Source: Bacillota bacterium (lineage in GTDB: Bacteria > Bacillota_I > Bacilli_A > RFN20 > CAG-826). From it: 64,000 nucleotides of DNA. Location: the NCBI GenBank assembly GCA_030537155.1, contig JAUNOH010000005.1, positions 22,282-86,281 on the forward strand, given 5' to 3'. Positions 3,309-23,026 of this stretch are shown in pieces. Made by a program: the position numbers and the translations under genes. The notes beneath the pieces were generated by a model. The model was given only the letters and a program-made list of their open reading frames with translations, did no database searches and was not told where the DNA came from. The stretch's first letter is position 1, and the number at the start of each line of letters is the position of its first letter.

Positions 3309-4631
3309 ATGAATCGAACAATCGAAAGACCCAAATATCTGAAAAAGCTCGTCTCCCTCATGGACAATGGCCGAGTCAAAATCGTAACAGGGGCGAGACG
3401 TTCGGGAAAAAGCTACCTCCTTAAGGAACTTTTCAAAAAAGAATTGCTCGCCATGGGGGTCCCGGCCGACCATTTCATCTACCTATCCTTTGAGGGAAAC
3501 GATAACAACGACCTCAAAAACCCGCTGGAGCTTGAAGCCCACATAAGGGGGCTGGTGAAAAACGATGGTAAGTACTATCTGATAATCGACGAGGCCCAAA
3601 ACATCTTTTCCATCACCAATCCATTATTTACCGGAGGAAAAATACTCCTTGCCAAAAAAGGAGATGAAAACGCCATAACCTACGTAGGCGTCGTCCTTTC
3701 GCTGGCGAAGATAGAAAACCTCGACGTCTACATAAGCGGGAGCAATTCCCGCTTCCTATCCCGGGACATCGTGACCGATTTCCGCGATCGGGGCGACGAA
3801 ATCAACGTTAAACCTCTCTCTTTTTCGGAATTCGTTTCATTTAAAAACGAAAATCCCGAAACCCTATATGAAGAATACTCGCTTTATGGGGGGATGCCAT
3901 TGACGCTCAGCTATGCGGAAAACAGGGAGAAAGAAAATTATCTGAATAACCTTTATCTGCTGACTTACGCCAAAGATCTCGTCGAGCGAAACAAAATCAA
4001 AGACGATGAGACGATCAACGTCCTGGCCAAGATTCTATCTAGTTCGCTCGGTTCTCTCGTCAACGGGGAAAAAATCTCCAACACCTTCGTTTCGAACAAA
4101 TTAAAAATTTCCGGCGAAACCGTAAATAAATACCTTGGCTTCCTAACCGAGGCCTATCTCATCGCGAAGGTTGATCGCTATGACATCAGAGGCCGAAAAA
4201 ATATCGGGGCCCTCTACAAATACTATTTCACCGACCTCGGAATCAGGAATTCGCTTCTCCACTTCCTTTCCCGCGATTTCGGCCACATCATGGAGAACAT
4301 CATATATAACGAGCTCGTCTACCGCGGTTATTCTGTTGAAATCGGGGTTATCAATGCCTTCAAAAAGGAAAACGGGACGACTAAGAGGGAAAACTATGAG
4401 ACGGATTTCCTCGTTAGGAAGGGGAGCCTCACATATTACATACAATCATGCTATTCGCTGAACGATGAGCAAACTTATGAAAGGGAAACCAGGCCATTCC
4501 GCCTCATTGATGATTCCTTCAAAAAAATCATCGTGACCCGGCTTGGTGGGCCCATAAGGCACGACGAGCACGGAATCACCCAAATGGGGATAGTCGATTT
4601 CCTATTGCGGGAAGATTCGCTGGATCTTTAA
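3309..4631 (+). CDS. AAA+ ATPase of the DUF4143-containing family
   Basis: ORF 3207..4631 opens with GTG. The ATG at 3309 gives the family-typical N-terminus MNRTIERPKYLKKLVSLMDNGRVKIVTGARRSGKSYLL (Walker A) and LIIDEAQ (Walker B). Confidence 0.75.
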   Translation: MNRTIERPKYLKKLVSLMDNGRVKIVTGARRSGKSYLLKELFKKELLAMGVPADHFIYLSFEGNDNNDLKNPLELEAHIRGLVKNDGKYYLIIDEAQNIFSITNPLFTGGKILLAKKGDENAITYVGVVLSLAKIENLDVYISGSNSRFLSRDIVTDFRDRGDEINVKPLSFSEFVSFKNENPETLYEEYSLYGGMPLTLSYAENREKENYLNNLYLLTYAKDLVERNKIKDDETINVLAKILSSSLGSLVNGEKISNTFVSNKLKISGETVNKYLGFLTEAYLIAKVDRYDIRGRKNIGALYKYYFTDLGIRNSLLHFLSRDFGHIMENIIYNELVYRGYSVEIGVINAFKKENGTTKRENYETDFLVRKGSLTYYIQSCYSLNDEQTYERETRPFRLIDDSFKKIIVTRLGGPIRHDEHGITQMGIVDFLLREDSLDL

Positions 4632-8350: not shown

Positions 8351-8610
8351 AGAAGTGATTTTACTTTAACACGCGCTTGAATCAACCATGGATGGATCCT
8401 CCTTTTTCCAAATGGTATGGAAAATGGGTGGTTGCACCCACCAACCGGGGCTTACAATCTGTCAACCAGCGGTTGCATGGAGGAAAATCAGGCGGCATGA
8501 AGGCCACTCATCTAGCCGCTGTTTTGATGTTTATAACACGCGTCTTTTGCCTGCTACGCACATATTTTCCCTTTAATAGGCACTGTATTGCCTGCTATAT
8601 AGGGCTCAAT

Positions 8611-8650
8611 GAGTCGAACTTGTCACTCTAGTTTTGGAGTAACAAGTTTA
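8611..8650 (+). repeat. direct repeat copy 1 (34 bp perfect, 40 bp with 2 mismatches), containing a hairpin
   Basis: AACTTGTCACTCTAGTTTTGGAGTAACAAGTTTA at 8617-8650 is identical to 10007-10040. An internal 12-bp imperfect stem is formed by AACTTGTCACTC and GAGTAACAAGTT. Confidence 0.9.
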
Positions 8651-8681
8651 AAAATAGTCGATTCAGCGATATACTAGATGC

Positions 8682-9536
8682 ATGGAAAACCGTTACCGCT
8701 TTGAAAAAGACGTCCATTTAGTCGCCGAATCACTCACTATGCCTCTAGGCAAAATAGCCGAAGGGGCGAAGATTCCGGAGTCCAGCTTTTACGACGCCCT
8801 GAAAAATAATGACCCATCTCGGAACATCTTAGAGGCCTTCTACGGTTTCGCCTATAAAAAAGGGCTCAGGTTAAATAAAGCCAAGGAAGAGATATACGGG
8901 GAGGGCCTGAATAATGGCGAGGTTCTCCTCTTCCACGGATCCAGCAACGGGGTGGATGAAGTGGATCCGAAAGGCTCAAGGAAAAACTGCGACTTCTCCA
9001 ATGGGTTCTATTGTGAGGAAAGCTATTCGTCCGCTTTATGCTTTGTCGAAGGGGACCCCAACTCGAGCGTCTACGCCTTCAAGACGGATTTAGGCGGACT
9101 AAGGGTATTGAGACTGCAAAGCGATTTGGAGTGGATGCTATCCATCTGCTATTACCGCGGATCGCTTGTTAAATACGAAGGCAATAATAAGCTACTGGAT
9201 ATCATAAAGAAGCAGCAAGATTACGATGTCATAATCGCCCCAATCGCCGACAATAAGATGTATCGGGTCATGCAGCAATTCGCCATCGGGCAGATCACCG
9301 ACGTGCAGGCCGTCCATGCCCTCTCAGCCTCCAGGCTAGGCAAACAATACGTTTTCAAAACGGAAAAAGCCGTTTCCTCGTTGAAGGAAATCGAGCGGAT
9401 GTATATCAGCGCCCCGGAGAAAGAAGCCAGCAAGGCAGGTTCGGCGGAACGCGCACATGAAATCCAAACAAAACTCGATTTGGCAAAAAGGGAATATCGG
9501 AGAGAAGGCCGATATATCGACGAGGTGTTTAAATGA
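8682..9536 (+). CDS. DUF3990-like protein with an N-terminal HTH-like region (PARP-like HGS / GFY motifs)
   Basis: The stretch LLFHGSSNGVDEVDPKGSRKNCDFSNGFYCEE matches my recollection of the DUF3990 core (lYHGS...DFGkGFYtT). The first ~65 aa look helical and DNA-binding-like. Confidence 0.6.
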   Translation: MENRYRFEKDVHLVAESLTMPLGKIAEGAKIPESSFYDALKNNDPSRNILEAFYGFAYKKGLRLNKAKEEIYGEGLNNGEVLLFHGSSNGVDEVDPKGSRKNCDFSNGFYCEESYSSALCFVEGDPNSSVYAFKTDLGGLRVLRLQSDLEWMLSICYYRGSLVKYEGNNKLLDIIKKQQDYDVIIAPIADNKMYRVMQQFAIGQITDVQAVHALSASRLGKQYVFKTEKAVSSLKEIERMYISAPEKEASKAGSAERAHEIQTKLDLAKREYRREGRYIDEVFK

Positions 9537-10021
9537 GGGAATTTGACGCGAACGGACTAGAATTGGCGAGCTTCCAGGGCGAACTATTCGAGCAATCTAT
9601 CAAAGCCTGCGGGGAATCCTCACCCGTTTTCCTCAGGCGGTTTTTCCTCTCCGATTACGCCGCCACCCTCGATGATGGGGATAGCTCGATTCAATCCCTC
9701 GATTTTAATGAGGCCTTTGAATCCATCCAAAGGCAATACGGACCTAGCCAATATGGCAAAGGCAAATATTCAAGTGAGGGAATGTATTGGTTGGGTTATT
9801 TTGCCAGATACGTATGCTACACGAGGGAATTATCGAGCAGGGCCTTCTATCGACTCTTCGACGTGAAGGACATATATAGCCTCTATGAGTCCTACCATAC
9901 CCAAAGCGAGGAATGGTGCCTCGCGCATCTTCTTGCCAAAAACGGATACACCGAAGCCACGTTGAATAAAAATCAGCGATTATTGGAGGCGCTGAGGGCC
10001 GAATCAAACTTGTCACTCTAG
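9533..10021 (+). CDS. DUF3791-like partner protein
   Basis: ATGA overlap with the upstream gene. The C-terminal SLYESYHTQSEEWCLAHLL resembles the DUF3791 y..lHtqs motif. The last 7 codons (ESNLSL*) lie inside the direct repeat. Confidence 0.5.
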   Translation: MREFDANGLELASFQGELFEQSIKACGESSPVFLRRFFLSDYAATLDDGDSSIQSLDFNEAFESIQRQYGPSQYGKGKYSSEGMYWLGYFARYVCYTRELSSRAFYRLFDVKDIYSLYESYHTQSEEWCLAHLLAKNGYTEATLNKNQRLLEALRAESNLSL

Positions 10022-10040
10022 TTTTGGAGTAACAAGTTTA
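10001..10040 (+). repeat. direct repeat copy 2
   Basis: See copy 1. It lies exactly 1390 bp downstream and is followed by a separate terminator-like hairpin at about 10052-10090. Confidence 0.9.
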
Positions 10041-10088
10041 GTGGTCACGTTAAAAACCGCCCGAGCATCGAACTCAGGCGGCTTTGCT

Positions 10089-10352
10089 TTATCCGATATA
10101 GCCTTGGTGCTTCCCGCTGGAGAAGTACTTTATGGCATAGGAGCAGGTGGCTTTGTAGGAATATCCCTTCTCGAGGCAATACCCCTTCACCTCCTCCATG
10201 AGCTTCCCGGCGATCCCCTGCCCCCTTAGGGAGGGATCAACCACGGTTTGGAGGATGTCTAACACCCCATCCTTTATCTGGAAGCGGACGAAGGCCAGCT
10301 TCTTATCATCCCAATAATAGGAGATCTCGGTTTCGCTTATTCTTTTTTCCAT
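10089..10352 (-). CDS. small GNAT-like acetyltransferase-fold protein (YjdJ/Acetyltransf_CG type)
   Basis: 87 aa with VVDPSLRGQGIAGKLMEEV, a Q/RxxGxG/A acetyl-CoA loop. Confidence 0.65.
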   Translation of the reverse strand: MEKRISETEISYYWDDKKLAFVRFQIKDGVLDILQTVVDPSLRGQGIAGKLMEEVKGYCLEKGYSYKATCSYAIKYFSSGKHQGYIG

Positions 10353-20508: not shown

Positions 20509-20690
20509 TTAGACGGTCCTCCTATCTGTATCACATTGTATTACATCATTTCGCGTTTTCCAATGCCCTAGGCAAAAGTTAATTGATTCTTTCAGTTTAA
20601 ACTCTCCTCAGCAACTCATAAGACGTTCCCTTTTGTTTGCCTAGGATTTAGATTGCATATCAAAAACCGCCAAGGCCTCAATCCTTGGCG

Positions 20691-20852
20691 GTCTTTATTA
20701 GTTCGGGCCACGTACCATCAGAGATACTTTTCCAGAACAGCTCGATCTCCCCCTTTTTTTCGAAAATCTCTCGACAAGGGCCTTAGTATTAAAAGCGACC
20801 CACGACTACGTATCTATGAACGTAGAATTCCGGGGTCGCCTACTGATACAAA
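20691..20852 (-). pseudogene. degenerate second copy of the tRNA-proximal short ORF plus its terminator
   Basis: The minus strand reads ...FEKKGEIELFWKSISDGTWPELIKTAKD*, compared with ...FSKKGEIEKFWKSLSDGTWRELIKADKD* in the copy at 22853. In-frame stops lie upstream. The terminator hairpin ACCGCCAAGG/CCTTGGCGGT is at 20666-20692. Confidence 0.55.
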
Positions 20853-22852: not shown

Positions 22853-23026
22853 TCAGTCCTTGTCAGCCTTTATTAGTTCTCGCCACGTCCCATCACTGAG
22901 ACTTTTCCAGAACTTTTCGATCTCACCTTTTTTCGAGAATCTTTCGATGAGAGCAGTATTATCGAAGGCTATCCCTACTGTGTATCTATCTACATAGACA
23001 AACTGGGGTTCGCCTGGATGAACAAT
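22853..23026 (-). other. short ORF or gene 3' fragment directly downstream of tRNA-Phe, with terminator
   Basis: The track ORF 22853..23059 begins inside the tRNA. The conserved part is ...RYTVGIAFDNTALIERFSKKGEIEKFWKSLSDGTWRELIKADKD*. A 14-bp-stem hairpin plus T-run lies at 22826-22870. Confidence 0.35.

Follow-up and report, generated by a model that had tools for sequence, protein, structure and literature searches.

The stretch analysed here, 64,000 nucleotides of contig JAUNOH010000005.1 from a Bacillota bacterium (the window), carries a two-gene cassette, ORF1-ORF2, bracketed by direct copies of a short palindromic repeat, which is the subject of this report. A sequence-only reading of the window had described the repeat as a perfect 34-bp duplication with an imperfect inverted repeat inside it, and had taken it for a duplicated attachment or recombination site left by the insertion of a small cassette, or for the remnant of a tandem cassette array. 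The descriptive part of that reading proved accurate throughout. Two exact copies of the 34-mer AACTTGTCACTCTAGTTTTGGAGTAACAAGTTTA lie on the same strand with a spacing of 1390 bp (Table 1), and a search of the whole 64 kb at up to three mismatches returned no third copy, the expectation from shuffled sequence being 0. Extended leftward by 6 nt, the match reaches 40 bp with two mismatches (GAGTCG at 8611-8616 versus GAATCA at 10001-10006), both at third codon positions and synonymous in the frame of ORF2 (GAG/GAA, TCG/TCA); outside these 40 bp, the sequence between 8351 and 8616 shows no similarity to the cassette. The arms of the inverted repeat, AACTTGTCACTC and GAGTAACAAGTT, pair with one C.A mismatch in a 12-8-12 geometry. 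Folding energies of the 34-mer are -14.8 kcal/mol for the + strand (z = -3.2) and -15.1 kcal/mol for the - strand, where 12 pairs form without interruption.

ORF2 ends in ...ESNLSL-TAG, its last five codons and stop falling in the 5' arm of the downstream copy. The open reading frame (ORF) at 8377..8631, which shares the final six residues ESNLSL and had been called spurious, has no Pfam match and is absent from gene calls on public contigs of the same species. Also as described, a separate terminator-like hairpin begins 12 nt downstream of the downstream repeat copy. It is likely a bidirectional terminator serving the cassette and a convergent GNAT gene (10089-10352, - strand). The repeat itself does not look like an intrinsic terminator; its stem is A+T-rich, only TTT follows the stem, and a terminator scan makes no call there. 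Past position 10040, the downstream copy is followed by neither a promoter nor a co-directional gene.

Table 1. Features of the ORF1-ORF2 locus (window coordinates).
Feature	Position	Strand	Description
Upstream repeat copy	8611..8650	+	exact 34-mer 8617-8650; palindrome proper 8617-8648; 8611-8616 imperfect extension
Promoter-like site TTTAAA-17-TATACT	8647..8675	+	overlaps last bases of upstream copy; 9/12 matches
ORF1	8682..9536	+	284 residues; XRE-type helix-turn-helix about 1-75; DUF3990 82-235; conserved C-terminal helix
ORF2	9533..10021	+	162 residues, all-alpha (predicted); start overlaps ORF1 stop (ATGA, 9533-9536)
Downstream repeat copy	10001..10040	+	exact 34-mer 10007-10040; palindrome 10007-10038
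Terminator-like hairpin	about 10052-10095	both	G+C-rich stem, T-rich tail on each strand

The first cassette protein joins a predicted DNA-binding domain to a toxin-like one. DUF3990 is recognized in ORF1 with an E value of 4.5e-31; Pfam places this family in the ADP-ribosyltransferase (ART) clan (PMC7955679), and it forms the C-terminal domain of Rhs5 in a study of type VI-secreted Rhs effectors of Serratia, which noted the domain and reported no test of Rhs5 (PMC4524185). The structure of ORF1 is predicted with confidence (predicted local distance difference test, pLDDT, 94). Its N-terminus superposes on the XRE-type helix-turn-helix (HTH) domains of SinR, DdrO and HipB with deviations of 1.5-3 A over about 52-60 residues (SinR: 1.5 A over 52 residues), as well as on that of HigA2, and some homologues match Pfam HTH_3 and HTH_19 directly. 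The remainder gives weak matches to ART folds, namely the VPA0770 toxin (probability 0.96, E = 0.017), PARP10 and diphtheria toxin. H85 and Y110 are conserved residues of ART type. ORF2 (pLDDT 90) has no match in Pfam, NCBIfam or PHROG and no structural neighbour in a fold search against the PDB, recombinase folds included; sequence searches of the PDB returned chance hits only. The pairing of the two genes is kept in 113 cassettes. Candidate-defence models of PADLOC match ORF1 (PDC-M13, M10 and M42A) and, weakly, ORF2 (PDC-M42B, E = 1e-3), and PADLOC ranks this type of pair as a candidate system only. Judged from domains and predicted folds, ORF1-ORF2 looks like a toxin-antitoxin- or defence-type module in which the predicted toxin-like protein bears its own HTH.

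Comparison with relatives changes the meaning of the repeat. ORF2 relatives at 35-61% identity were collected from 80 genome loci (metagenome-assembled genomes and isolates, mostly Firmicutes, with a few bins labelled as other phyla), and closer relatives (70-94% identity) from public assemblies; individual loci are cited below by L numbers. Beside these cassettes we found a recurrent palindrome, AACTT-N21/22-AAGTT, of constant length (31-32 bp), which in the main family takes the form AAACTTGTTTGT-N7-9-ACAAACAAGTTT with a geometry of 11/12-7/9-11/12. The related loci contain 223 such palindromes, versus 2 in shuffled sequence. An upstream copy is present in 79 of the 102 cassettes whose upstream region is visible, 35-135 nt 5' of ORF1, and several clades carry tandem upstream copies 46-58 bp apart. 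A downstream copy at the ORF2 stop codon is found in 33 of 111 cassettes, and 31 have both copies, spaced 1338-1493 bp. At many main-family loci the last A of the ORF2 TAA codon doubles as the first A of the palindrome. Among the downstream copies, arms are conserved while centres drift; L052 and L053, for example, differ by three changes in the centre and none in the arms.

The relatives L022, L024, L226, L227 and L228 likewise have both copies, each in a different genomic context. Within the window lineage the block from AACTT to AAGTTT is conserved in 10 of 10 aligned copies and the flanks are not; the 3' half, TTGGAGTAACAAGTTT, is nearly invariant between cassettes that are only about 71% identical. 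The 34-bp repeat of the window is thus the lineage-specific form of a conserved palindromic junction element. That it also encodes the end of ORF2 (...NLSL-stop) is an incidental by-product, peculiar to this lineage, of ORF2 running into the palindrome. Across the family the end of ORF2 is constant neither in length nor in frame, and in most homologues the stop codon reaches no further than the palindrome's first base. The element matches no Rfam family, and a literature search for its sequence returned nothing relevant. By eye, it fits none of the Firmicute operator motifs compared (CIRCE, Cheo/LexA box, Rex, TnrA/GlnR, BirA) in spacing or sequence. Cassettes of another clade present a variation: in L095 (4008-4040 and 5490-5530) and L093 another hairpin, GGGGCAGGGTCG...GACCCTGCCCC, which is G+C-rich and terminator-like, stands as a direct repeat at both ends of the cassette, and the upstream palindrome is present besides.

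The upstream copy is intimately associated with the promoter of the cassette. In the main family, the centre of the palindrome holds a -35 box, TTGAAC, and TATAAT follows 7-8 nt past the palindrome at the canonical 17-nt spacing; the ribosome-binding site and the ORF1 start come next, with a leader of 25-50 nt that includes AGGAG. A -10 box follows 54 of 73 distinct upstream copies versus 3 of 30 downstream copies. The window lineage has its own arrangement, common to L022 (where the promoter reads TTGAAA-17-TATAAT), L226 and L227, in which the palindrome abuts the promoter. Here the ORF1 start codon lies 6 nt past the predicted -10 box (6-7 nt in L022, L226 and L227) and no Shine-Dalgarno sequence is apparent by eye (unscored), which suggests that the ORF1 mRNA of this lineage may be leaderless. 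A palindrome lying over the promoter of an operon whose first protein has an XRE-type HTH is the classical layout of an autoregulated operator.

Two further properties bear on this point. The first is the symmetry of the element, which was assessed on sites picked only by their outer AACTT/AAGTT anchors and their position relative to ORF1, a choice made to avoid selection bias. Inner-arm positions 6-13 are Watson-Crick complementary in 77% of cells, versus 27% in shuffled sequence, and each inner position is occupied by alternative pair types (at position 6: G-C, A-T, C-G and T-A). G.T is not preferred over A.C on the coding strand (12 GT/TG versus 11 CA/AC in upstream copies, 13 versus 12 in downstream copies), and the upstream copies lie 5' of the -10 box, outside the mRNA of the module. 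The symmetry is therefore a property of the DNA and not of a transcript hairpin. The second is that the type of palindrome changes with the helix-3 region of the ORF1 HTH: TTTGT goes with ISRTTL, TAGGTGCA with S(K/R)RT(L/I)LY, CTCTGTAAC with VTRMALYRW, and the TCACTC of the window with IPESSFY. This clade-wise co-variation is a prediction of co-evolution between the protein and its putative site.

The element also coincides with the limits of what the cassettes share. When the window is aligned with L226 and L227, which have different neighbours, homology sets in where the upstream palindrome begins (8617/8618) and extends to the final bases of the downstream palindrome (10039). Likewise, four or five independent pairs, among them L048/L050 (98.4%), L052/L053 (98.2%), L096/L098 and L086/L094, consist of near-identical cassettes whose flanks are unrelated, and homology there begins 0-4 nt from the 5' edge of the upstream palindrome. 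One clean occupied/empty comparison is that between L059, where two identical 33-bp copies surround a unit of 1416 bp, and L195, where the site is empty and a single copy is present. The flanks of the two loci are 88% and 82% identical, the palindrome 100%, and both flank alignments overlap on the one copy of L195.

The search for empty sites that the sequence-only reading had called for was thus successful in a relative and found none among the public contigs of the species itself. The two-copy locus was recovered at 99.3-100% identity in several independent metagenome assemblies of the same species; a single-copy empty site would read as the left flank, one 34-mer and then GTGGTCACG. Public contigs assembled at k=31 (Logan) include some of exactly 1416 bp that correspond to window positions 8621-10036, and others that end at 10011 (L006-L009, L014-L019). 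We considered the former as excised circles and rejected the idea: their ends exactly match the breaks that a 34-bp repeat produces in a k=31 de Bruijn graph. Such cassette-sized contigs could easily be misread as circular elements, and the palindrome accounts for the breakage of short-k assemblies at this point. Two comparisons made to find an empty site at this very locus were uninformative. L229, from a sister species whose pair of ABC genes shows 76% DNA identity, differs in its flanks and has no palindrome there, and L230, from a more distant relative, gave no more information.

Some loci suggest that more than one kind of unit can be joined at these palindromes. In L225, a member of the window lineage (1090-2800), the copy after ORF2 is followed by a promoter-like sequence, a HipBA-like pair of genes encoding HTH_26 and HipA_C domains, and a degenerate third copy, an arrangement equivalent to an array of different toxin-type cassettes. 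The downstream copy of L042, with a TATAGT, precedes an operon of UmuC-like, YolD and MazG-like genes. Identical copies surround a 124-residue ORF in L142 (2502-2991), between a methyltransferase gene and genes for MBL-fold and APH proteins, and an approximately 80-nt repeat that includes the palindrome surrounds the gene of a 219-residue NPPF-motif protein adjoining GmrSD in L143 (507-1283). Finally, the bases that precede the upstream copy match the last codons of ORF2 over 6 nt (GAGTCG) in the window, with two synonymous third-position differences, and over 9 nt in L024; this is no more than a hint, given the two substitutions, that both upstream copies were copied from an ORF2-end junction.

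Rearrangements of other kinds were seen in the same set of loci. L192, examined against L043 as a second empty site, was rejected as a replacement instead of a clean excision, its left breakpoint lying at the 3' end of the palindrome and the right one inside the next gene. In L192 (2450-2600) the palindrome and promoter directly drive a gene of 275 codons that has no Pfam hit and whose N-terminal sequence looked SIR2-like; in L043 (4088-5560) they drive ORF1-ORF2, after which comes the same 275-residue gene with a different N-terminus. The reverse complement of L215 contains a 119-bp direct repeat, 98% identical (270-388 and 2225-2343), with a terminator-like hairpin, 160-190 nt outside both palindromes. 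The short contig L206 joins pieces in an order permuted with respect to L215 and L178, which reflects either a rearrangement or an assembly path through repeats.

How widely the element is dispersed was examined at several scales. A scan of 185,579 representative genomes for the arm pattern of the window gave no match, which means that this set lacks the species or its form of the element. The loci picked through protein homology add up to about 670 kb, and no palindrome was found in them away from a cassette. With two copies in 64 kb, the repeat does not behave as a dispersed repeat of the repetitive extragenic palindromic (REP) or miniature inverted-repeat transposable element (MITE) kind, nor as the common scattered repeat that the sequence-only reading had named as fatal to its own proposal. 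A scan of metagenomes with the main-family consensus gave a broader picture: more than 120 stretches contained 134 palindromes, 56 of them next to a recognizable DUF3990 cassette, 25 at contig ends and 53 beside other genes. The neighbours of the cassette-free copies include XRE-HTH genes, a SIR2-like gene, a GH3 enzyme and a much-repeated locus resembling an FMN-dependent dehydrogenase (N-terminal sequence only). Such copies might have been left behind as scars, be bound in trans, or have travelled as promoters through recombination. Only two viral contigs carry the consensus palindrome; the context of the loci is that of a bacterial chromosome and no PHROG hits were obtained.

Taken together, these observations lead us to propose that the junction element combines two roles, that of a predicted operator for the HTH protein of the cassette and that of a recombination-prone boundary, a proposal to which we give roughly even chances. 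In this model, each junction would have one copy of the element, in the order stop codon, palindrome, promoter. The palindrome would be the DNA site of the N-terminal HTH of ORF1; bound at the upstream copy, which abuts or overlaps the promoter, the protein would repress its own synthesis, and the copy at the ORF2 stop could serve as a second site, be it an auxiliary operator, a loop anchor or an insulator. At the same time, direct repeats of at least 31 bp around the module would allow recombination between copies to delete, move or swap the intervening DNA. The simplest agent, by analogy with certain phages of the T4 type discussed below, would be ordinary homologous or slippage-type recombination, the module encoding no recombinase. 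The boundary role is in part demonstrated by the edge coincidences and by the L059/L195 pair; the mechanism behind them, and whatever activity the element may have in this species, can be put forward only conditionally. The two 34-bp copies would owe their perfect identity to a recent recombination or gene conversion event, added to selection that acts on the site.

The earlier proposal of a duplicated recombination site thus survives in so far as the repeat bounds a portable cassette; it falls short in that neither a recombinase nor an att-type core could be identified, and in that the repeat is more than a scar of insertion: the palindrome is old and conserved, goes with the promoter of the cassette and co-varies with its HTH. 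The alternative that the same reading offered, a remnant of an array, has gained from the arrays and junctions of L225, L042, L142 and L143. Given an orphan downstream copy and a 6-nt ORF2-like tail on the upstream one, the window cassette could most simply be left over from an array, or have recombined out of one.

Several findings weigh against the combination of operator and boundary. The downstream copy is dispensable, being present in only 30% of cassettes. As many as 53 of the 134 exact-consensus palindromes in metagenomes adjoin unrelated genes, housekeeping genes included, and these cassette-free copies would demand binding in trans, scars or another factor. The palindrome of L142 is intercistronic, followed by a ribosome-binding site and no -10 box. 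That of the window ends at the -35 box instead of containing it, and the promoter call there is, taken alone, not above chance. Co-variation between HTH and palindrome is confounded with phylogeny, and in the window lineage changes in the 5' arm go uncompensated, the 3' half being invariant, so that the site is less symmetric than a simple dimer operator predicts. As for mobility, the L059/L195 pair belongs to a different clade and not to the species of the window, all of the 18 or more public contigs of that species carry the cassette or break at the repeat, and the sister species lacks synteny at the locus. L048 and L050, moreover, share 28 nt beyond the downstream copy, and L192/L043 did not provide a second clean excision.

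It is tempting to go one step further and to imagine a cassette system of gut and rumen Firmicutes, hitherto undescribed, in which palindrome-plus-promoter junctions would turn modules of the defence or toxin type into plug-in units, with excision, insertion and shuffling all taking place at the palindromes, the agent being a dedicated recombinase or the HTH-DUF3990 protein itself acting as a site-recognition factor. We would give this idea a modest chance at best. If it were true, the plug-in modules would include HTH-DUF3990 pairs, HipBA-like pairs, GmrSD and small accessory genes, and the system would be a chromosomal Gram-positive counterpart of integrons or dif modules. Integrons are essentially unknown in these bacteria.

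One could also envision that the palindromes are true site-specific recombination sites of the att, attC or dif-like type, acted upon by a recombinase encoded elsewhere, that the units they delimit are integron-like or dif-module-like, and that the overlap with the promoter is secondary. Much of the boundary evidence would suit this explanation: the empty site retains exactly one copy, unit boundaries are the outer edges of palindromes in several contexts, identical copies bracket unrelated genes (L142, L143), arrays exist (L225), and the length is a constant 31-32 bp, the outer AACTT/AAGTT being conserved and the interior variable. However, homologous recombination between repeats of at least 31 bp explains every one of these patterns equally well, and a fixed crossover point could not be demonstrated. 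Co-variation with the HTH of the cassette would be unexpected for the site of a host recombinase. Furthermore, the element fits neither attC cores nor the 28-bp 11-6-11 layout of dif and has no bulged bases, and no recombinase domain was found among the genes called within about 6 kb of the cassette in this species, which encode an AAA_14/DUF4143 protein, two ABC proteins, a GNAT protein, an LCM methyltransferase, an HTH_3 protein, an alpha-amylase and one protein with no Pfam hit. We see only a small chance that a dedicated site-specific system is at work.

The neighbourhood itself offers two further observations. AAA_14/DUF4143 ATPase genes recur, being found in the window at about 3500-4630 (via L001:1-1100), in L225, in L226 and with the ABC pair of the sister species (L229), and may point to a variable or defence-island neighbourhood. 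The ABC gene adjacent to the cassette is 13 codons longer (618 residues) on public contigs of the same species; the corresponding stretch of the window, 8351-8389, holds an in-frame stop, so that either the strains differ or the longer call is wrong. Elsewhere in the window, an 81-nt direct repeat, 81% identical, occurs at 20678-20758 and 22853-22933, its copies 2175 bp apart.

At the opposite extreme, the two copies might be a primary and an auxiliary operator, working by looping or as a roadblock, with no mobility involved and the boundary coincidences simply marking the edges of a functional unit. The promoter overlap, the co-variation with the HTH, the tandem double sites upstream in some clades and the conserved arms around drifting centres in downstream copies (as in L052/L053) all agree with such a purely regulatory role. 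This explanation leaves several findings unaccounted for: the occupied/empty pair whose end points are the two copies, the 98%-identical cassettes that lie between unrelated flanks and have their breakpoints 0-4 nt from a palindrome edge, the unrelated genes that the element brackets, and the ORF2-tail remnants on the upstream copies of the window and L024. Nor does it sit well with the 70% of cassettes that have no downstream copy. Its likelihood, in our estimation, is small.

The repeat could, alternatively, be a relic with no function, left by a tandem duplication or by the decay of an adjacent cassette, that includes a hairpin by chance. The ORF2-like tail of 6 nt on the upstream copy, with its two differences of synonymous type, is what a decayed neighbour might leave; the downstream copy drives nothing, and excision variants are absent from the public contigs of this species. 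Yet at least 33 loci from several orders share the two-copy layout, each clade with a sequence of its own. Between loci whose flanks differ by 12-18%, the element shows 100% conservation, it is far better conserved than the 71%-identical cassette of the window lineage, and paired changes keep its arms complementary. These conservation data already disfavour the explanation, whose probability we take to be slight. Slighter still is the probability that the element works as a hairpin in RNA, whether to terminate transcription, to stabilize mRNA 3' ends or to mark a processing site between cistrons: although the downstream copy precedes the terminator and hence is transcribed, the element of L142 and L143 lies between co-directional genes just before a ribosome-binding site, and predicted hairpin z-scores are about -3.2 to -3.9, the upstream copies stand outside the module mRNA, only some three T residues follow the A+T-rich stem while a separate canonical terminator is present in the window, L049, L057 and L059, the coding strand has no preference for G.U over A.C, sequence beyond mere pairing is conserved across orders, and Rfam gives no match.

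If the combination of operator and recombination-prone boundary is correct, its implications extend beyond the present locus. Modules with DUF3990, although common in Firmicutes of gut and rumen, are catalogued as no more than candidate defence systems; a promoter palindrome matched to their HTH is a directly testable regulatory site and a handle on the control of the module. The occurrence of the element at module ends, at the empty site and at other accessory-gene junctions suggests a simple, possibly recombinase-free route by which cassettes could be lost, gained and reshuffled. For annotation purposes, the palindrome provides a precise marker of the cassette boundary.

Among known systems, integron cassettes and dif modules resemble the element in logic more than in anatomy. 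IS200/IS605-type elements and palindrome-associated transposable elements excise seamlessly, with TnpA supplied in cis or in trans, and leave no hairpin, in contrast to the empty L195, which keeps one full palindrome. An attC site spans about 57-141 bp; its cores read R''(RYYYAAC)...R'(GTTRRRY), and some of its bases are extrahelical. Integron cassettes share with the present unit the association of one or more genes with one imperfect palindrome, with one site per array junction and one at the empty position. The element differs in being shorter (31-34 bp), in its unbulged stem, in the absence of an integrase nearby (intI with attI; none of the genes called within about 6 kb has a recombinase domain) and in having its own promoter inside the site; the bases preceding AAC (for example GTCG, ATCA, GAAA, AGTA) and those following GTT (for example TAAA, TAGT, TGTT) do not match the cores. 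The dif site consists of 28 bp, with 11-nt XerC and XerD arms around a 6-nt spacer; the 12-8-12 palindrome of the window differs from this layout and, by eye, contains no dif-like arm. In Acinetobacter plasmids, dif modules are bounded by pdif (XerC/XerD) sites (e.g. PMC6449649, PMC13141974). These too are small modules, often of the toxin-antitoxin type, located between short dyad-symmetric sites in varied contexts, with no recombinase inside and shuffling between sites. Our palindromes, however, are near-perfect, 31-32 bp long and unrelated to dif, they carry or abut the promoter of the module, and they form direct repeats, whereas dif modules alternate C/D orientation; no link to Xer was found. 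The logic of dif modules and integron cassettes is thus common to the element, and the anatomy of their sites is not.

On the regulatory side, the nearest relatives are autoregulated type II toxin-antitoxin loci with operators of the XRE/HipB type. Like these, the cassette has two small, co-directional genes with an ATGA overlap, a predicted XRE-fold HTH, and palindromes at the promoter, sometimes in tandem. It departs from them in that the HTH is fused to a toxin-like domain of the ART clan and not carried by a small antitoxin, and in the unusual length of the site. With an identical second copy some way off, DNA looping would be conceivable, as in the OL-OR system of λ or in gal and lac; here, unlike in those systems, it lies at the stop codon of the last gene, 1.39 kb away.

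The closest described analogue appears to be the promoter-early stem-loop (PeSL), the mobile regulatory cassette of T4-type phages (Arbiol et al. 2010, PMC2839356; Comeau et al. 2014, PMC4122927). PeSLs consist of a stop codon, a stem-loop and a sigma-70 promoter flanking accessory genes, and generate indels and mini-circles by homologous recombination (PMC2839356, PMC4122927). Both elements start at the stop codon of the upstream gene and join a stem-loop to a sigma-70-type promoter, whose -35 box the PeSL stem-loop may overlap; the main family has just this succession of stop codon, palindrome, TTGAAC and TATAAT, and the palindrome of the window adjoins TTTAAA-17-TATACT. In both systems, small accessory genes have a copy of the motif on each side, and indels or replacements between relatives end in the motifs, as in L059/L195, in the four edge pairs and in the window compared with L226 and L227. 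In neither case would recombination between copies need a dedicated recombinase. There are differences as well. Our element resides in chromosomes of gut and rumen Firmicutes and not in the hyperplastic region of a T4-type phage, its stem is A+T-rich, unlike an efficient terminator, and mini-circles are a feature of PeSLs. Its sequence is kept from one bacterial order to another and goes mainly with a single cassette family, and its co-variation with the HTH points to an operator function not reported for PeSLs. We accordingly rate it as a variant of two known themes, the toxin-antitoxin operator and the PeSL-like or dif-module-like junction element.

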